From positions 1 to 58,148 of the IMG/VR virus record IMGVR_UViG_3300027707_000021: a stretch of DNA of 58,148 nucleotides. One strand, given 5' to 3'. Below the pieces are notes generated by a model that worked only from the letters and a program-made list of their open reading frames with translations, searched no databases and was not told where the DNA came from. Source of the DNA: a virus. Lineage: Duplodnaviria; Caudoviricetes. Position numbers and translations under genes: made by a program. Shown in pieces: positions 5,209 to 53,768 of this stretch. Numbering within the stretch: the first letter of the stretch is position 1; every line of letters begins with the position of its first letter.

Positions 5209-6480
5209 TTATTTCATTGTCATTTTGATGATATCAGGGTTCATCATCATGCGGTTAAACTTCTGTTTGTTACCATTAAAGATTGTACGTACAATTAAAT
5301 ACTTAAGATCATTGGTAAAATAGTCTTTAGTACAAAGAGCTATTAATCTATCAGATATTTTTTGACTTACAGTATTATCTTTACTATAAACAACTGAATA
5401 GTTAGATAACCTTGTTGCTAAAGTAGCAGCAATGTCTGCACGGTATGAATCATCTTTACCAATACAACTTCTTAACTCACCTAAAATATATGATTCATTA
5501 TCATGAGTCAACAAATCTTTAGGTGTTACCAGTTTGTCCAGTTTGTTGTTAATAAATGTAGTAAACATAGAAGCAAAAGCATCTCCAACAGAACCTTCAC
5601 CAATCATTTGAATTAATGATAGGTTTGATTCAAAGTTATCAAAACTAGATATAGCATTGAAAAATGTTGTAATAGATCTTGCATTTGTTTCTAGTGTAAC
5701 TAATTCTGGGTGTAATAACAAGAAGTTAATACATCTTGAGTCAATACCTGCTTCTTCTGCCCACTGTGCCCATACATTAACATCAAACTTAAGGTTTGCT
5801 GTAACATATCTTGTTTTTTGTGCAGCATCCACTGAATTTACCATATACTCACCATTGTCTGGATTTGCTGTTAATATGATGTGCCAATCTTTTGGTAATA
5901 CCCAAGAGATATATGTTTGTCTATCTATTAACTCCATTACTGCTTGGATGAAGCGGGTGTCACTTCTATTCCAATCGTCAAGGAGAAGTATTCCACCTTC
6001 TTTTTTGTCAGCAATCCACTCAGGTGGACAATAAGACATCCTGTTCTTACCTGTCATTTTATATCCAGTTTTTAGATATTCTTGAACTGCAAGTTCATCA
6101 ACCCATAATCCAACTTTTTTAGTAGCTGGTGCTTGTATATTAGCAAGGTCTGATGATGCAGCTGATCTTTGTGCTGCAGTATAGGATAAATCATCTATTT
6201 TAGGCTCTGAAACTCTTGTTTCTTTATACATTTGAAATTGACGTACTGGGAATCCTACTAAGTCACCCAACTCTTCTATCTGTGCAAGGTTAACCTTTAC
6301 AAAGTTTAAGTTGTTTTCTTTAGCTAGCTCAACAATGGTAGATGTTTTACCAATTCCTGATTCTCCTAATACTTCTACTGATACAGATTGTTTACCTTGT
6401 GCTTGTAAAAATCTATTGTTTGTAATAATGTGATTCACAAACCCTTTTAATTCTGTTACATTTAAATTTACTTGTGCCAT
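5209..6480 (-). CDS. MoxR-like AAA+ ATPase
   Basis: Walker A GESGIGKT, GDLVGFP, Walker B LLLDDWNR, sensor LTANP. Confidence 0.85.
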   Translation of the reverse strand: MAQVNLNVTELKGFVNHIITNNRFLQAQGKQSVSVEVLGESGIGKTSTIVELAKENNLNFVKVNLAQIEELGDLVGFPVRQFQMYKETRVSEPKIDDLSYTAAQRSAASSDLANIQAPATKKVGLWVDELAVQEYLKTGYKMTGKNRMSYCPPEWIADKKEGGILLLDDWNRSDTRFIQAVMELIDRQTYISWVLPKDWHIILTANPDNGEYMVNSVDAAQKTRYVTANLKFDVNVWAQWAEEAGIDSRCINFLLLHPELVTLETNARSITTFFNAISSFDNFESNLSLIQMIGEGSVGDAFASMFTTFINNKLDKLVTPKDLLTHDNESYILGELRSCIGKDDSYRADIAATLATRLSNYSVVYSKDNTVSQKISDRLIALCTKDYFTNDLKYLIVRTIFNGNKQKFNRMMMNPDIIKMTMK

Positions 6481-6502: not shown

Positions 6503-6889
6503 TTATAATTCTGCATCAAATGAACAAGATCCTGTTTCTTGTATGCAATCTAATATTTTTCTCCCTAAAAGATAATCATAATATTCTGAAAGTTGATTTT
6601 CTGTTAATTCAGGTAATCCGCCTTCTTCTATATATGAAGCAAAAGATAACGGAGCATCATCTTGTGTTTTGTATAGATCAAAATATATTTTCAGTGCTGG
6701 TTTATGTCCTCCAAATGCATCTTCAATATTTTTTAATTCATTTTTTAATTCTTCTAAATCATCTTCATTATAATTATACTGTAAATAATTTGGTGTTTGA
6801 CCTGTTACTCCAAATCTATCTGCAGCATCACTACTTTGAATAGCAAAAGCAAATTTACCTTCTATGTCTCCTGAATAATATCTTCCCAT
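6503..6889 (-). CDS. hypothetical phage protein
   Basis: 128-aa acidic ORF starting MGRYYSGDIEGKF. Confidence 0.7.
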   Translation of the reverse strand: MGRYYSGDIEGKFAFAIQSSDAADRFGVTGQTPNYLQYNYNEDDLEELKNELKNIEDAFGGHKPALKIYFDLYKTQDDAPLSFASYIEEGGLPELTENQLSEYYDYLLGRKILDCIQETGSCSFDAEL

Positions 6890-6891
6890 GA

Positions 6892-7831
6892 TTAATTTAG
6901 TTTAATAACCTTACCAGGCAACTCTTCATTCATAGTAGAAATACTACTCAATACCCATAAAGCATTGTTTGGACAATTGCTTGGAGCATAAGCTTCTCCA
7001 TCTGTCAAATATATTAGTGCTGTATAACACTTCTTTTCATTATAGTGGTCAATTACAGGTTGGAAACTTGTTCCACCTCTACCATGTATATTCCAATCTT
7101 TTTTTGGATTAAACTCTTCTACAGTTCTAAGTGTTGTATCACACTGCGCAACAGTAATCTTATGACCTGTTTTAGTCATATGACATAACTCATTGTAAAA
7201 CTCTTTAAGCTCTGATGTATTTACAGATCCAGATGTGTCAATACCAACAAGAATATGATTTTTGAATTTAATCTTTAGTCCTGGGTTTTCAGCATATCTT
7301 TTATTGTATTTACGTCTCAGCTTTTTAGTGTACACTACAGATGAGTTTCCAACAAATCTTCTCAAATAAGCTTTCCAATCAAATTTAGCTGGCTCAATAT
7401 GAAATAACTTTGCAATTAATTCACTTAACTCACCAGGAACATTTCCTTGTTTCTTTTGAGTTTGTTCAGCAGCCTCTTTTAACTGATGGTCTATTTGTTT
7501 TTGAACAAGTTTTTTATCAGCTTCAGGTAACTCATCAAATTCTTTCCATGTGCTATGGCAATACTCTGATTCACCATCCATCTGATCCATCAATGAATCT
7601 AATGAAGGAGATGTTCCATCTTCTTTGGCCTGTTCCAACAAATTGTAATAGACTTTGGTCCCTGCTTTAGTAGGAAGATTTAATTCAGGAAAACTACTTA
7701 GTAATAATCCACCGTCTGGTAGCAAATTTGAACTAATATATTGATTGATCTCTAGATCTGCAGCTATATTAAATAACTTGTGATCAGAATACAAATCTCT
7801 CATCAATAAATGTCCAAATGCTATGTGTAAG
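6892..7831 (-). CDS. HEXXH metallopeptidase-vWA protein (DUF2201-like), exon 2
   Basis: Frame is open from 7830 as LHIAFGHLLMRD...; NIAADLEIN; MIDAS motif DTSGS, GRGGT and LTDG. Confidence 0.85.
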
Positions 7832-7881
7832 CATTTATGTTAACTCATACTTTCATATGAGATCAGACTATACCTTCATCC

Positions 7882-8718
7882 CTATTGGGATGGTCTATTG
7901 TAGTCGTTGAACCTCTTTCTTGGTTTATATGTGTCTAAGTAAATAATAAAAACTTTTCTTTTTCTTTCTAAACATGTAATATAATCTTTATACATGTAAT
8001 TAAATAGATTAAGAGTATCTTGTAAAGAATGTTGTGTAATATAACAATCTTTATTTTTTTTAATAGTTTTATTTTTTACAGGTAATATACTTAATAAGTC
8101 AATTATAAATTTTTGTGAACCTGAACAAAAACCTGATTTTAAGATTTTCCAATCATTATTTTTTAGATTTTTGTAAATACCAACTGTACCATCTCCATCA
8201 AAATAACCTCTTATAAAGTGATGAATTAATTCATCATCTAGTATAGGTATTCTAATTGTTTTAGTTTTAGTTGGTGTACATCCTAAATTATTCAAATCAT
8301 TATACATTTGTGCTGATGTTATCTGAGCTTTCCATATATATTTTTTAAATATTTTTTGATATTCACAATTTGGAGAATTATTTGATCCAATATCTGATAA
8401 AAATAGGTTTACCCATTCTTTGTCTTTTGAAGAAAAAATAACTTGTCCAGATTTACTTGCTTTTTTTGTAATACTACCATCTGCAAATAATACACCTAAC
8501 CAATAGGCTTTTTTTTCTGTATTTATAACATTAAAAAAGTCATCTTGACATGTGTATTTCATTGATGATTCAGACAAAGTTCTTGATTTTACATTATTTC
8601 TTTTTAAAATAGCAAATACTGTTTTAACATTTATTGTTAAAATATCTGCAATCTTTTTACCTGATAATTTATCAGTAATGTAATAATTAATTACTTTTTG
8701 TTCTATTTCTGTTTTCAT
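7882..8718 (-). CDS. intron-encoded LAGLIDADG homing endonuclease with N-terminal HTH
   Basis: Two motifs, YWLGVLFADG and HFIRGYFDGDG; its 3' end overlaps the intron R/P8 elements. Confidence 0.9.
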   Translation of the reverse strand: MKTEIEQKVINYYITDKLSGKKIADILTINVKTVFAILKRNNVKSRTLSESSMKYTCQDDFFNVINTEKKAYWLGVLFADGSITKKASKSGQVIFSSKDKEWVNLFLSDIGSNNSPNCEYQKIFKKYIWKAQITSAQMYNDLNNLGCTPTKTKTIRIPILDDELIHHFIRGYFDGDGTVGIYKNLKNNDWKILKSGFCSGSQKFIIDLLSILPVKNKTIKKNKDCYITQHSLQDTLNLFNYMYKDYITCLERKRKVFIIYLDTYKPRKRFNDYNRPSQ

Positions 8719-8730
8719 ATATGTAAGTGT

Positions 8731-8752
8731 TTATATTACAATATACCAAAAA
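8731..8752 (-). promoter_or_regulatory. putative late-type promoter for the homing endonuclease
   Basis: TTTTTGGTATATTGTAATATAA matches the motif found before the late operons. Confidence 0.5.
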
Positions 8753-8941
8753 TAAATCATATAGCCAAGAAATTTGGCTGCGGATTTCCCATTTAAATAT
8801 TTTTATCTTTTTTACTATACCTGAGTAGTTAATTCAGCCACATACTACCTCACGGTGCATGCTTAGTAGATAAAACTTTAGGGAGTCCCCGTCAATTTAA
8901 GACATTTTACATATACATTGCTGTATAAGGAGCCCTAGTTA

Positions 8942-9162
8942 AGCTCATGCTTAATCAATCCAACTCTATGTGGTTCACTTAATTCAGTGAAAAAATTAGG
9001 GTTAATTGTTAACTGCATACCAATTCCATGTTTACTTACACCTGCTGTAGATATACGGTCACTGAATTGTTTATTTATACCAATTAAAAAAAGCCCGTAA
9101 AAGGGCTCATCTAGAATTAAAGTTTTGGTGGTTCTTGCAACACCATCTTGTATATTTATCAT
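8942..9162 (-). CDS. HEXXH metallopeptidase-vWA protein, exon 1
   Basis: EPFYGLFL...TAGV...INPNFF...LIKHE(L), typical of the DUF2201 N-terminal peptidase; 221+940 nt gives a 386-aa spliced protein. Confidence 0.85.
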
Positions 9163-48578: not shown

Positions 48579-51500
48579 ATGGCAATTAAGTATTTAAATA
48601 ATATTGATTTAGTAACAAATGAATTGCAACATGCAGTTATACAACCATTAATAAGTCCCCCAACAGATTTAACTGCTAAGTTAGGTCAAGTATATTATAA
48701 CACACTTGATGATAAATTAAAAATATATACAAGTGTTGGTTGGGTAACAGTTGGTGGTGTTAGTTCTATAACTTCAGGTAATATAAATACAATTACAATT
48801 GGAGGAACTATTTTTAATCCAACAGTTTCTGCTAATACAGCACCAGTAACTAGTGGTTCATTAAACTTAGTTACTGGAAATGATGTTTATAATTTTATTT
48901 CTGCATTTGGATATGTACCTTCAACAAGACAGTTATCTATAAATGGCACTCAATATGATTTAAGTGTTGATAGAAGTTGGAGTGTTGGTACGGTTACAAG
49001 TGTTTCATTTAATTTAGGAACAACCGGAACTGATTTAAATTCAAGTATAGTTAATAGTACCACTACTCCGGTAATAACATTAAATGTCCCTACTGCAAGT
49101 GCTAGCAATCGTGGTGCTTTAAGTGCTGCTGATTGGTCTACTTTTAATGCTAAACAAGCTGCTTTAACTTTTGGTAACTTAACAAGTACGGACATAACTG
49201 TAACAGGTGGTACTGCTTCTATTATAGGTGCGGGTTCTATTTTAACTTTAGCTACTGTTAATGCTAATGTAGGAACATTTGGTTCATCTACTGCTATTCC
49301 AGTTATTACTGTAAATGGTAAAGGTTTAATTACAACTTTAACAACAACTGCTGTATCTATTCCTTCAGGTGCATTATCTTTTATAGGTGATGTAACTGGT
49401 AGTGGAACTACCGGTTCCAATACTACTTTAACCTTAGCAATAGTTAATACTAATGTAGGTACGTATGGTTCATCAACTAGTGTCCCTACTATAACAGTAA
49501 ACGCTAAAGGATTAGTAACTGCAGCAAGTCAAACCACAATACCAAGTGCAACTAGTTCTATAACTGGTTTACTTACTTCAACGGATTGGGTAACATTTAA
49601 TAGTAAACTTACACGAAATACCGCAATAACAGGAGCAACTAAAACTAAAATAAGTTATGATGTAAATGGATTAGTTACAAATGGAGTAGACGCTACCACT
49701 GCTGATATTGCTGATTCAACTAATAAAAGATATGTTACTGATGCTAATTTAATAGTAATAAATAATACTAGTAACACAAATACTGGTGATCAAGGATTGC
49801 AATCAGTTACAGATATAAATGCTATAACAACTAAAACAATTACAGCTGCGTCATTTATAAAAAATAGTAGTACTGGAACAAATATACTTCTTGATGATGG
49901 TAACACAATACCAATATCATCAATAGATGGTACAGTTACAAGTGTTGGAGTCTCTATGCCTTCTGCATTTACAGTTACAAACAGTCCAGTAAATACAAGT
50001 GGAACTATTGCTGTCACTGGAGCTGGACTGGCATCACAGTACATAAGGGGTGATGGACAGTTGGCATCATTCCCAGATATAGCAGGTGGTGGTGGTGGAC
50101 AGGTCTACTACTGTAATGGGGGAACATCACAGGGGACTATAGGTGGCAGTGCCTTCTATCAGATATCAACTGGAGCAATTTTATTAACAGGTGTTGACTT
50201 CACATCAGGAACAGTTAACAACGTAGCATTTGCAAACTTTATAACAGATATAGGAAAGCCCACACAGGAGGTAGTTCCTGCAGGTGTTTGGATATTTCAG
50301 TGCTACCTATCAGCATCTGCCACCAACTCATTAGAGGTTTACTCAACTGTTGAGATTTATGATGGATCTACATTTAATGTGTTAGCTACATCTTTGGTTG
50401 AGGTACTGACTGGAGGAACAAGTATTGATCTGTACACTTTCACGTGTGCTGTTCCAGAGTTTGACCCACTTGTAACAGCTGATAGGATAGCTATTAGGTT
50501 TTATCCATCTAACTTAAGTGGAGGAAATACTATTACACTTCACACGCAGGACTCTCACCTGAGCTCTATACAGACAACATTTACAACGGGACTTGCTTCA
50601 TTAAATGGACTCACATCTGCATCACAACTATTTGCAAAAGGTACATCAGGAAATGATTTTAATATTTATTCAGCAGGTGCAACACACACGTTTAATATTC
50701 CAGATGCATCATCTGCATCGGGTAGAAGAGGTCTATTGATAGCTGATGATTGGATAACATTTAATAGTAAAGAACCTGCAATAACTATAGGAACTACATC
50801 CCAATATTGGAGAGGTGATAAGTCATTTCAAACATTGAATACATTAGCGGTGCCTGAACTTACTAATCTTTACTATACAGATTCAAGATCAAGACTAGCA
50901 CTATCTTCTAGCGCTACAGGTCTAACATACACTAATACAACAGGTGTCTTTAGTCTTACATCTGGTTATTTAATACCTACATCAGCTAGTTACAATAATA
51001 CTAACTGGGATACAGCGTATGCTGATAGAAATAAATGGGATGGTGGAGCAACTGGATTAAATGCTTCTACAGGTAGAATATCACTAGGTGCAAATACAAT
51101 TGGTAGTAATGTATTTACATCAACAAATCCATCAGCTATTACATTTTTACAAGCTAATGCAAATAATACAGTTTCATGGTTAGATGCTGCGTCATTTAGA
51201 ACTGCAATTGGTGCAGGAACTGGTGGTGGTTCTGTTACATCAGTAGCTGCATTAACACTAACATCAGCAGTAGATACTGATTTAACAAGTACGGTTGCTA
51301 ATTCAACTACAACTCCAGTTATAACTTTAAACGTGCCAGATGCTGGAGCTGGTTCAAGAGGTGTTGTTACAACTGGTGCGCAGACATTTGCAGGAGTTAA
51401 GACTTTTGCTACTAATGGAGTAAAATATCCAGGAACTGGAAATGGATTGATAGCTACAATAAATGGAGGAGGTATTTTAACTACATTACCTGACACTACA

Positions 51501-53768
51501 TATCCAAATTTGACAGAATTAACTTTTGTTAGAGGCACTACAAGTAATATTCAAACACAATTAAACTATGATGCTTCTGCTATACAAAGAGGAGCAGTAA
51601 CAACAGGAGTTCAGACATTTGCAGGCAATAAAACATTTTCTGGTACTGTAAGTGCAGTAGAATTAAAACTTCCTAATATTGCAAATCAAACATTATTAAT
51701 TGCTGATTCAAATAATTTTATAACAGGTTTAGATACTGATATATATCCTAACCTTAATGAATTAGCACTATTAAAAGGTGTAACAAGTAATATTCAAACA
51801 CAATTAAACTATGATGCTGGACCAATCCAAAGAGGGGCAATCACAACAGGAGTTCAGACAATAGCTGGAAATAAAACATTTGTAGGTTCTTCAATTCTTA
51901 AAGGAACATCAGTAAATGACGGAACATCACTTGGACCTGAAATACTAACAGTAGCATCAATTTCAACAAACTGGGTAGGAACATCATTTGCTAATGGATA
52001 TGTTCATTCTACTGGGAGTACAAGTGTGTTACAAGCTTCGCAGAATGTGCTTACGGATTCATTATATCAAGTTCAATACACAATATCATATACAGGTGGT
52101 CCAGCTGGTTCATTTACAATTAGTGTAGGAGGTGCTACTAGCCCAAGTAAATCACTTTCCGGAACTGGTTACTATACTGCTTTAACTACAAGTATTACTC
52201 CATTAACCATAACTCCATCATCAACATTTAATGGTAGAGTTATTTTTAGTTTAAAAATTATAAATCCATCAAGTTCTGTAATGACCATTCAGTCTAGTAA
52301 CGGGGTTATAAGGAATGAATTTAGGTATTCTACAACTGGAGGGTCTAATATGTTTTTAGGTTTTAATAGTGGAGGATATAATTCTTCTGGAAGCTCTAAT
52401 ACATTTGTTGGTTTTAATAGTGGTAGATTTAATTCTACTGGAAATGACAATACAGCTTTAGGGCAAGGAGCTCTATATAATAACACTTCTGGAAGCGCCA
52501 ATATAGCTATTGGAGGACGAGTTTTGTTAAGTAATTTAACTGGTAATGACAATACAGCCATTGGAACTCAAGCCTTATTTTCAAACATAGGTGGTTATAA
52601 TAATAATGCCTTTGGAACAGCTGCTTTAACTCTTAATACAGAGGGATATAGTAATAATGCCTTTGGATCAGCTGCTCTTGGAAGTAATACCACTGGATAT
52701 GCCAATGTTGCTATTGGTGAACAAGCTTTACAAGCTAATACTACTGGTTATTATAATATAGCTTTAGGAACAAATTCTGGTAACAATGTTGCTGGGGGAT
52801 CTAATAATATAACAATAGGATACGGTACAACTACACAAGCAGCCAGTGACCAATCTTCAATTGTAATAGGAACTGCAACAAACGGACTAGGAAGTAATAC
52901 TACGGTAATAGGAAATGGTAGTACGGTTAAAACAGCTATTTATGGTAACTTATTATTAGGTACAACAACCGATATTGTAAGTTCACGTTTAACAGTAAAC
53001 AGTACTACACAAGGATTTTTACCACCAAGAATGACAACTACACAAAAAAACGCAATAGCAACTCCTGCTACTGGGTTAGTTGTTTACGATACTGATTTAT
53101 TAGCTTTATATCAATATAATGGTTCAGCTTGGGTAGTACTTGGTGGTGGAAGTGGAACAGTTACATCTGTTGCTGCATTGACATTAGGGACAACTGGTAA
53201 TGACTTATCAAGTACGGTAGCTACTGGAAATACAACTCCTGTAATAACATTAAATGTACCAAACGCCAGCGCAACAGCAAGAGGTGTAATTACAACTGGC
53301 GCACAAACAATAGCAGGAGAAAAAACATTTAGTACTTCACCTAAAGCACCAACTCCAGCAATTGGGACTAATGATACAACATTAGCCACTACAGCTTTTG
53401 TTAATGCTATTGTTCCTGGAAATATAGTATATAATATATTGATTGGCACTGGAACAGGCACGGGAAATATAACCACCGAAACAACTGGAACATCAGGAAG
53501 TTTACCTTATACTCAGAATGGTAGAAATGTAATGATTAATAATGGAGCAACAGCAATATCTGTGGCTGCAACTATAATTAGTACAGCTGCTGATTTTATA
53601 GCAAGTTATACTAAAATTGGATCAGCAACAATTACATTTACATTTACTGGAACAGGAGCAATATTAATAGCCCCCAATGGGGCTATACTAAGTGGAAGTG
53701 CTGGAAGTACCGCATTGTTAACAAAGAATGGAACAACTGTGTATTTATTAATTAATAATTTAATATAA
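48579..53768 (+). CDS. long tail fibre / adhesin-like protein (1729 aa)
   Basis: Thr/Gly/Ser-rich with internal repeats, N.A.G..AL..NT.G beta-roll repeats, STTQGFLPPRMT..Q and APTP...NDT.LATTAFV motifs. Confidence 0.85.
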   Translation: MAIKYLNNIDLVTNELQHAVIQPLISPPTDLTAKLGQVYYNTLDDKLKIYTSVGWVTVGGVSSITSGNINTITIGGTIFNPTVSANTAPVTSGSLNLVTGNDVYNFISAFGYVPSTRQLSINGTQYDLSVDRSWSVGTVTSVSFNLGTTGTDLNSSIVNSTTTPVITLNVPTASASNRGALSAADWSTFNAKQAALTFGNLTSTDITVTGGTASIIGAGSILTLATVNANVGTFGSSTAIPVITVNGKGLITTLTTTAVSIPSGALSFIGDVTGSGTTGSNTTLTLAIVNTNVGTYGSSTSVPTITVNAKGLVTAASQTTIPSATSSITGLLTSTDWVTFNSKLTRNTAITGATKTKISYDVNGLVTNGVDATTADIADSTNKRYVTDANLIVINNTSNTNTGDQGLQSVTDINAITTKTITAASFIKNSSTGTNILLDDGNTIPISSIDGTVTSVGVSMPSAFTVTNSPVNTSGTIAVTGAGLASQYIRGDGQLASFPDIAGGGGGQVYYCNGGTSQGTIGGSAFYQISTGAILLTGVDFTSGTVNNVAFANFITDIGKPTQEVVPAGVWIFQCYLSASATNSLEVYSTVEIYDGSTFNVLATSLVEVLTGGTSIDLYTFTCAVPEFDPLVTADRIAIRFYPSNLSGGNTITLHTQDSHLSSIQTTFTTGLASLNGLTSASQLFAKGTSGNDFNIYSAGATHTFNIPDASSASGRRGLLIADDWITFNSKEPAITIGTTSQYWRGDKSFQTLNTLAVPELTNLYYTDSRSRLALSSSATGLTYTNTTGVFSLTSGYLIPTSASYNNTNWDTAYADRNKWDGGATGLNASTGRISLGANTIGSNVFTSTNPSAITFLQANANNTVSWLDAASFRTAIGAGTGGGSVTSVAALTLTSAVDTDLTSTVANSTTTPVITLNVPDAGAGSRGVVTTGAQTFAGVKTFATNGVKYPGTGNGLIATINGGGILTTLPDTTYPNLTELTFVRGTTSNIQTQLNYDASAIQRGAVTTGVQTFAGNKTFSGTVSAVELKLPNIANQTLLIADSNNFITGLDTDIYPNLNELALLKGVTSNIQTQLNYDAGPIQRGAITTGVQTIAGNKTFVGSSILKGTSVNDGTSLGPEILTVASISTNWVGTSFANGYVHSTGSTSVLQASQNVLTDSLYQVQYTISYTGGPAGSFTISVGGATSPSKSLSGTGYYTALTTSITPLTITPSSTFNGRVIFSLKIINPSSSVMTIQSSNGVIRNEFRYSTTGGSNMFLGFNSGGYNSSGSSNTFVGFNSGRFNSTGNDNTALGQGALYNNTSGSANIAIGGRVLLSNLTGNDNTAIGTQALFSNIGGYNNNAFGTAALTLNTEGYSNNAFGSAALGSNTTGYANVAIGEQALQANTTGYYNIALGTNSGNNVAGGSNNITIGYGTTTQAASDQSSIVIGTATNGLGSNTTVIGNGSTVKTAIYGNLLLGTTTDIVSSRLTVNSTTQGFLPPRMTTTQKNAIATPATGLVVYDTDLLALYQYNGSAWVVLGGGSGTVTSVAALTLGTTGNDLSSTVATGNTTPVITLNVPNASATARGVITTGAQTIAGEKTFSTSPKAPTPAIGTNDTTLATTAFVNAIVPGNIVYNILIGTGTGTGNITTETTGTSGSLPYTQNGRNVMINNGATAISVAATIISTAADFIASYTKIGSATITFTFTGTGAILIAPNGAILSGSAGSTALLTKNGTTVYLLINNLI

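Follow-up and report, generated by a model that had tools for sequence, protein, structure and literature searches.

The stretch of DNA analysed here, referred to as the window, is the complete 58,148-nucleotide virus record IMGVR_UViG_3300027707_000021 (Caudoviricetes). A gene for a vWA-metallopeptidase lies on its minus strand and is interrupted by an insert at 7832-8941. Three open reading frames (ORFs) are called at the gene: a 75-amino-acid (aa) fragment ending in KHELN and a stop, a 278-aa ORF, and a 304-aa ORF with a TTG start at 7806. The insert is most probably a mobile group I intron with a LAGLIDADG gene in its P6 loop, placed inside codon 74 (HE/LLH) of the vWA-metallopeptidase gene of a crAss-like phage. 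We put the probability of this reading at about 0.92. The features are listed in Table 1.

Table 1. Features of the interrupted gene, its insert, the neighbouring genes and related insertions (helices given as 5' strand / 3' strand; compensatory pairs as a fraction of the pairs in the helix)
Feature	Coordinates	Strand	Compensatory pairs	Remarks
Exon 1	8942-9162	minus		73 codons plus 2 nucleotides (CT) of Leu codon 74; ends K-H-E; N-terminus as in intron-less homologue P0001
Exon 2	6892-7831	minus		Last base of codon 74, then 312 codons plus stop; remaining metallopeptidase domain and vWA domain with DxSxS
Group I intron	7832-8941	minus		1110 nucleotides; RF00028 alignments, covariation; missing from 80/80 related loci
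5' ribozyme part	8719-8941	minus		RF00028 positions 1-134, 23.2 bits; pairings placed by hand; covariation
P1, 3' strand	8934-8930	minus	1/5	Pairs with exon 8946-8942, 5 base pairs; U8942.G8934
P2	8927-8922 / 8917-8912	minus	3/6	GCAA loop
P3	8903-8900 / 7896-7893	minus	3/4	4 base pairs, spans the ORF (about 1 kb)
P4	8894-8893 and 8891-8888 / 8784-8779	minus	invariant	A8892 bulged
P5	8883-8881 / 8790-8788	minus	1/3	Extension of about 90 nucleotides at 8880-8791
P6	8778-8776 / 7913-7911	minus	invariant	3 base pairs across the ORF
Intron ORF	7882-8718	minus		278 aa, double-motif LAGLIDADG homing endonuclease in P6 loop
3' ribozyme core	7832-7913	minus		RF00028, 40.3 bits, E 1.7e-8; terminal G at 7832
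P7	7907 and 7905-7901 / 7870-7865	minus	invariant	C7906 bulged beside G-C pair
P8	7892-7887 / 7882-7877	minus	2/6	
P9	7861-7855 / 7850-7844	minus	1/7	GAAA loop
128-aa ORF	6503-6889	minus		phrog_33624, unknown function; between vWA-metallopeptidase and ATPase genes
AAA+-type ATPase	5209-6480	minus		423 aa, two genes downstream; phrog_1297 'ATPase', 1.8e-34
Second insertion	L088:3463-4544 (approx.)			After invariant D99 codon, GAT/...AAATG/ATG; U at -1, terminal G
Third insertion	L092:3797-4763; also L095, L103			After invariant G327 codon (GRGG/T), GGT/...TTAATG/ACA; U at -1, terminal G

Insert boundaries and the interrupted gene

Cutting out the insert joins 8942-9162 to 6892-7831. The exons, joined by coordinates, are 1161 nucleotides (nt) long and encode the 386-aa product and its stop, with a single HExxH at residue 72 (KHELLHIAFGH) in the context GLIKHELLHIAFGHLL. 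Exon 1 ends at 8942 with AAG CAT GAG CT and exon 2 starts at 7831 with C TTA CAC ATA GCA. The intron, read from 8941 to 7832, has U as its first base and G as its last. A shift of +1 also keeps E-L-L-H, yet the intron would then end in C and not G, so the boundary is unique under group I rules. The coordinates, junction words and length given in a first-pass annotation of this DNA are all correct, and the gene is on the minus strand. Its claim that removal of the insert restores an intact HEXXH and a 386-aa ORF is borne out by the joined product and by the homologues described below.

Two protein profiles run across the junction. On the Pfam DUF2201_N profile, exon 1 covers positions 10-67 and exon 2 covers positions 69-240, with one split codon missing. 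On the PHROG 1314 profile, the exons cover 15-78 and 80-389, and again the one split codon is missing. Exon 2 as a query retrieved 4241 proteins at E ≤ 0.001, and homologue counts were taken from the 120 best, nearly all of which are 386-387 aa long. KHELLH is contiguous in 119 of these 120. The homologue without it (P0073) is 312 aa long, is 82% identical to exon 2, and starts with LHIAFGH, the first full codon of exon 2; its start may mark a contig broken at the intron polymorphism. Both exons of the window are open and are 96% identical to the intron-less homologue P0001.

The same comparison was made at the DNA level. In IMG/VR, 595 stretches encode a relative, and the 80 best (81-98% identity) served for the intron-less comparison. 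The insert is exactly missing in all 80 loci, which have 3 nt between the exons where the window has 3 + 1110 nt. A scan of the window for further copies, using the core motifs and the endonuclease, found no second copy.

An assembly chimera and an intein are the two explanations of the insert that these borders refute. DNA contigs of run X6, an independent run that is not among the possible sources of the window, cross both borders (record 8, 7671-7916; record 11, 8882-9123), so the insert is no assembly artefact. The same arrangement is found at 21 other loci. LAGLIDADG domains do occur in inteins, and nothing more speaks for either explanation. The exon frame meets stops directly past the junction, as in the 75-aa fragment, and the insert is therefore not an intein. 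Sixteen runs contain 50% or more of the words sampled from the stretch, and 5 of these runs are flagged as possible sources of the window. The runs with this allele are dated 2017-2020 and are labelled freshwater or crustacean metagenomes.

The interrupted gene belongs to a large family, with 13,562 cluster representatives at E ≤ 0.001. Exon 2 matches Pfam DUF2201 ('VWA-like') with 58.8 bits against a cut-off of 26.4 over exon 2 residues 194-311, and DUF2201_N ('putative metallopeptidase domain') with 33.9 bits against 23.2. Exon 1 alone scores 18.9 bits on DUF2201_N, which is under the cut-off. Conservation was read from an alignment of 95 sequences, composed of P0001 and 94 of the 150 best representatives (those with near-full-length, single-stretch matches). 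H72, H76, D99, D272, S274, S276, G327, T328, T350 and D351 are invariant in this alignment, and E73 and H81 are conserved in at least 90%. Both the HExxH and the DxSxS of the metal ion-dependent adhesion site (MIDAS) are thus conserved in the family. By conservation, residues 71-78 rank 28th among 379 windows of 8 residues.

The AlphaFold model of P0001 has a pLDDT (the model's confidence score) of 96.2, and in it the HExxH lies within helix 63-78. For the C-terminal half, the best matches in a fold search of the PDB are vWA/I-domains (probability 1.00, E about 2e-3, none at or below 1e-3). Among the fold matches listed, no metallopeptidase or other match covers the N-terminal domain. The exon 2 sequence found no solved relative in the PDB. 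By these domain matches and the modelled fold, the host protein is classed as a vWA-metallopeptidase with predicted peptidase activity, as the first-pass annotation had proposed when it placed the insert within the HEXXH of such a protein. PHROG 1314 and many GenBank phage records name this family 'HNH endonuclease'. Neither the Pfam domains nor the fold supports this name.

Ribozyme core and covariation

All helices of a group I core were placed on the insert and aligned to the model consensus. These comprise P3 to P9, with the P4 (P/Q) and P7 (R/S) strands and the P3/P7 pseudoknot. The core elements listed by the first-pass annotation (P1 with its U.G, P, Q, R, S, P8, P9 and the terminal G) could all be assigned in this way. 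In E-value mode, the Rfam group I model RF00028 matched 7844-7999 with the score given in Table 1, and the posterior is high over P6', P7, P3', P8, P7' and P9. When 8700-8960 was searched alone, positions 1-134 of the model aligned to 8700-8952 (E 4.4e-4). This alignment sets out P1, P2, P3, J3/4, P4, P5, P4' and the start of P6. The two half-matches are in the correct order and on the correct strand.

Smaller features of the RNA also agree with a group I intron. GNRA loops cap P2 and P9. The U.G in P1 is present in 17 of 17 distinct copies. A terminal intron G is found in every related locus with its 3' border read (18 loci, plus L086 and L088).

Covariation was measured on an alignment of the window's intron with those of 19 loci that have a complete intron. 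It has 20 rows, 17 of them distinct, and 1144 columns; L098 (5' end missing) and L102 (3' end missing) were left out. The structure tested has 72 pairs, of which 46 are core pairs set from the window and the Rfam alignments rather than from this alignment, and 26 are in the P5 extension. Over the 17 distinct copies, 99.3% of the paired cells can pair, compared with 91.3% in shuffles. Changes on both sides occur in 26 of the 72 pairs against 12.2 ± 2.0 in shuffles, and none of 500 shuffles reaches 26. When the partners were slid by 1-3 columns, at most 4 pairs changed on both sides and pairing was at most 44.5%.

Eleven of the 46 core pairs are compensatory. The compensatory pair in P1 joins an exon base to the guide sequence (GC 14, GU 2, AU 1). 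The three in P3 link sequences about 1 kb apart, and no other single observation argues as strongly for the fold. Together with the RF00028 matches to both halves and the exact absence of the insert from the 80 relatives, this covariation substantiates the claim that the insert is a group I intron.

Several points weigh against this assignment or reduce the force of the evidence for it. The Rfam search of the whole window at gathering scores gave no match, and neither half reaches the RF00028 gathering score of 50 bits. Each half stays below it because the 837-nt ORF splits the core and no single alignment spans both. The covariance-model search suggested in the first-pass annotation gives matches by E-value for both halves, each below the gathering score. 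In the 40.3-bit alignment the 5' part of the model is forced onto ORF sequence. In a 1401-nt search, the 5' half scored 14.9 bits (E 0.72). An RF00028 E-value search of five related loci pooled (27.5 kb) returned no match even for the same intron, the filters being too strict at that size.

The anatomy and the statistics have weak places as well. P3' and P8 are separated by 0 nt, which leaves no room for extra helices such as P7.1/P7.2. P3 has only 4 pairs, and P10 has at most 2. One of the five covariation measures, the number of further pair types, does not stand out (41 against 40.5 in shuffles, reached by 243 of 500). The P5 extension, with 15 compensatory pairs among its 26, leans towards structure because RNAalifold predicted these pairs from the same alignment. 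The 17 distinct copies are interrelated, so the shuffle test is inflated. P4, P6 and P7 never vary, and covariation is therefore uninformative for them.

The RNA data are uninformative on splicing either way. Among RNA contigs of three runs, no spliced transcript of this allele was found. A contig of run X17 joins 7830 to 8945 with 4 other letters between (pieces 7622-7830 and 8945-8971). It was considered as a splice product and rejected, its junction letters being those of an intron-less relative's allele. Barring carry-over of library DNA, this contig suggests that the gene family is transcribed in nature. A contig from the RNA library of run X18 covers 8774-8949 unspliced (the 5' intron part and 8 nt of exon 1) with 5 differences; its possible origins are precursor RNA, DNA carry-over and a sister copy. 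Run X19 gave only 18-nt fragments.

These points bear on the possibility that the intron has decayed and no longer splices, with the peptidase a pseudogene and the element persisting by drift or drive. Splicing is indeed inferred, the Rfam scores are under the gathering score, and L086 has its 1-nt insertion in exon 2 just past the junction. Decay is nevertheless very unlikely. The core helices stay paired through compensatory changes, the exons are open and nearly identical to intron-less P0001, the endonuclease ORF is under purifying selection (see below), and the allele is present in many runs over the years given above.

A functional group I intron would act here as follows. The transcript would be composed of exon 1, intron and exon 2, and its RNA would fold into the P1-P9 core. 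An external guanosine held in P7 would attack after U8942, which lies in the U.G pair of P1. The freed exon 1 would then attack after the terminal G at 7832. The ligated mRNA would encode the 386-aa protein with its zinc site intact. It follows logically that peptidase activity, itself predicted, would depend on splicing.

Endonuclease, distribution and further insertions

The first-pass annotation was silent on the 278-aa ORF inside the intron. This ORF matches Pfam LAGLIDADG_3 in two stretches with 33.2 bits against a cut-off of 22.5, and phrog_4645 with 1.5e-49. Its match to PDB 2dch_X, a 'putative homing endonuclease', is weak (E 0.0096). Two LAGLIDADG motifs are read in the translation, and in each an Asp precedes the final Gly. 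The Asp of the LAGLIDADG motif is the catalytic residue. The nearest endonucleases of cultured phages are about 28-34% identical and belong to Alicyclobacillus phage KKP_3916, Bacillus phage vB_BanS-Thrax5 and Staphylococcus phages Romulus/Remus. The Romulus/Remus relative is an intron-encoded endonuclease at a recA-like gene. In a related contig, a LAGLIDADG-like ORF that is 37% identical lies on the opposite strand just upstream of exon 1 (L089:1228-1980).

All 20 aligned copies keep the ORF open. Across 104 pairs from 15 distinct ORFs, the median ratio of nonsynonymous to synonymous substitution rates (dN/dS) is 0.21, with a range of 0.08-0.32. The endonuclease protein is thus kept by purifying selection. 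The final 30 or so codons run across P6', J6/7, P7, P3' and into P8, of which they cover the 5' strand, and the reading frame ends at a UAG (7884-7882) in L8/P8. Because the 3' end of the ORF shares its RNA with the ribozyme core (7882-7913), translation and ribozyme folding must compete.

A homing endonuclease gene could in principle have split the host gene on its own, with no RNA splicing, leaving 75-aa and roughly 304-aa polypeptides that reassemble or are inactive. The 304-aa TTG-start ORF at 7806 does exist, and split phage genes of such kind are known; they are also the theme of PMC10448857, in the part of that paper drawn on. This explanation too is very unlikely for the present gene. 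It would place H72-E73 and H76 on different chains, and the 304-aa ORF starts past both H76 and H81. The ORF is also flanked by roughly 220 nt on its 5' side and 80 nt on its 3' side that form a conserved, covarying group I fold with the U.G and the terminal G, and a free-standing gene would have no use for such a fold.

Used as a query, the intron ORF recovered 21 IMG/VR loci whose endonuclease is 84-90% identical at the aa level. Nineteen of the loci are complete on both sides, and every one of these has the endonuclease between residue 73 of exon 1 and residue 1 of exon 2. The host exons of these 19 loci are far more divergent. Compared with the window, exon 1 is 42-58% and exon 2 45-55% identical (74% for exon 2 of L104), whereas the 5' ribozyme part is 82-94%, the ORF 88-92% and the 3' ribozyme part 82-96% identical. 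In L086 an extra C is found in exon 2 just past the intron (L086:3398-3410) when compared with the otherwise near-identical L087, a difference due either to a frameshift in a decaying host gene or to an error in sequencing.

The bases that border the intron can be compared between occupied and empty sites. Among the intron-bearing alleles, 19 of 20 have GAGCT before the intron, and the remaining one has GAACT with a compensating guide sequence. The base after the intron is C in 17 of 20 and T in 3 of 20. The 80 intron-less alleles have GAGCT (34), GAATT (24), GAACT (21) or GAGTT (1) before the site and never have C after it. In the near intron-less relatives, the site has GAATT followed by A or G.

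The exon flanks of ±90 nt were also compared. Against 10 near intron-less relatives, the window differs at 3-8 and 3-12 positions, and these always include -3, -2 and +1. Against 10 intron-bearing loci it differs at 26-48 and 24-43 positions, yet the junction agrees. The -3, -2 and +1 bases of the window are those of the intron-bearing alleles, and they strengthen P1 and possibly P10. Either the native exons took up the intron along with no more than about 10 nt of donor exon sequence per side, or the three bases were selected later for P1 and P10; both accounts fit homing. The presence of the same intron (82-96% identical) in host genes of about 50% identity, together with the 3-nt footprint, points to acquisition by homing. 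In that process, the endonuclease would cleave the conserved KHELLHIA-encoding site in relatives that co-infect the cell and lack the intron, and repair of the break would copy the intron in.

Two further insertions were found in the same gene of related phages. The second, in L088, has a LAGLIDADG ORF 34% identical to that of the window, and RF00028 matches it with 36.1 bits (E 2.9e-7). The third, represented by L092, carries a LAGLIDADG-like ORF 37% identical to that of the window. RF00028 gave no match at E ≤ 0.01 in L092 3700-4850. This insertion is taken as an intron only because it has U at -1 and G at its end, carries the LAGLIDADG-like ORF and separates exon parts whose reading frames differ. 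That difference in frame also rules out an intein. All three insertion sites are at invariant residues. The statement in the first-pass annotation that phage group I introns favour conserved codons therefore extends to two more positions in relatives, after D99 and G327.

Gene neighbourhood, known systems and meaning

The window encodes a terminase, a portal and a major head protein. The nearest relatives of the terminase are those of Flavobacterium FPSV, Cellulophaga and Bacteroides crAss-like phages (25-28% identity). The window belongs to an environmental crAss-like phage. The intron lies within a replication/recombination block (exonuclease, ATPase, RusA, primase, Sak4, helicases). The 423-aa ATPase matches Pfam AAA and AAA_5 weakly, under both cut-offs. 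By analogy with known gene pairs, it is likely a MoxR-like partner of the vWA protein. The 128-aa ORF between the two genes could be a third component of the module. ARAGORN found no tRNA genes in the window (1-58148). The coding strand switches near 28.9 kb, with the replication block on the minus strand and the structural block on the plus strand. A 1729-aa ORF is present at 48579-53768.

The td intron of phage T4, which encodes the GIY-YIG endonuclease I-TevI, has its endonuclease ORF looped out from P6 and homes with co-conversion of flanking exon bases. The intron described here is like td in its P6-loop ORF, in a core that is formed through long-range P3 and P6, in its conserved active-site codon and in the homing with co-conversion proposed for it. 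It differs in that its endonuclease is LAGLIDADG rather than GIY-YIG, in having no room for P7.1/P7.2, and in a host gene that is outside nucleotide metabolism.

At the DNA level, the 5' ribozyme part resembles introns of Firmicutes phages, with 72-76% identity over about 115-145 nt and 92.5-95% over 40 nt. The matches are in the RNA polymerase beta gene of Staphylococcus phage Machias, the nrdD region of Enterococcus phage VRE9_1 and Bacillus phage Moonbeam. They lie in a coding sequence joined from 3 pieces, beside a homing endonuclease coding sequence next to nrdD, or in an unannotated gap. For Bastillevirinae introns, the portion of PMC11878797 drawn on describes an Rfam model that likewise matches each side of the endonuclease loop on its own. 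The hosts and host genes of these Firmicutes phage and Bastillevirinae introns differ from those of the window.

According to the parts of PMC7886860 and PMC12880540 covered here, group I introns frequently occupy core genes in crAss-like phages and in other phages of Bacteroidota. In the covered part of the former (Yutin et al. 2021), the crAss-like hosts of introns named are MCP, PolB, primase, ATP_43b and the transcription block. Those introns share with the present one the phage lineage, a group I intron with a LAGLIDADG protein and a conserved host gene. The vWA-metallopeptidase is not among the host genes named in that part of PMC7886860, Supplementary Fig. 12 being outside its scope. 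The phages treated there are from the human gut, and the runs with this stretch are freshwater or crustacean metagenomes.

The element type is thus familiar, and the vWA-metallopeptidase gene is unreported as a target in the literature searched. Within that literature, no report of a group I intron in the vWA-metallopeptidase/DUF2201 gene family was found, with supplementary host-gene tables outside the scope of the search. The first-pass annotation had called the host gene unusual. This stands as far as the gene itself is unreported, but the surprise is smaller than claimed, group I introns being frequent in crAss-like core genes.

The vWA-metallopeptidase itself has counterparts in jumbo phages. 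For group 2.2 jumbo phages, the sections of Iyer et al. 2021 (PMC7824862) drawn on describe a MoxR AAA+ ATPase with a vWA partner that has an N-terminal metallopeptidase, and they propose a role in virion assembly. The peptidase activity of the family is a prediction there as well. The likeness to the present locus is in the order of an HExxH metallopeptidase followed by a vWA domain with DxSxS, and in an ATPase gene nearby. The differences are that the ATPase here matches AAA/AAA_5 below the cut-offs and that the pair lies in a replication/recombination module.

An intron endonuclease may also serve its carrier. For the endonuclease gp210 of the PhiPA3 intron, Birkholz et al. (Science 2024, PMC11620839, as far as that text was covered) describe interference with a co-infecting phage. 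As with gp210, the endonuclease here would be directed at related phages whose copy of a conserved gene lacks the intron, with a possible benefit to the carrier. The phage family and the target gene differ from those in the covered text on PhiPA3, and competition would apply here by analogy.

A wider reading, which is tentative and to which we give clearly less than even odds, is that the vWA-metallopeptidase gene is a recurrent homing hot-spot. It would have received at least three independent endonuclease-bearing insertions at invariant metal-site residues, and the HEXXH intron would now be spreading across host genes of about 50% identity, its endonuclease used as a weapon against intron-less co-infecting phages in the manner of PhiPA3 gp210. 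If this were true, the uncharacterised MoxR-partner gene would be marked as essential.

The finding matters for annotation. Gene calling splits the locus into fragments of 75 and 304 aa with an 'endonuclease' between them, where the correct reading is one 386-aa vWA-metallopeptidase gene with an intron-encoded endonuclease. The three mobile insertions flag invariant residues of a widespread, uncharacterised family, and these residues are priorities for mutagenesis. The locus also provides a natural case of a single intron moving among divergent uncultured phages with a minimal 3-nt exon footprint.

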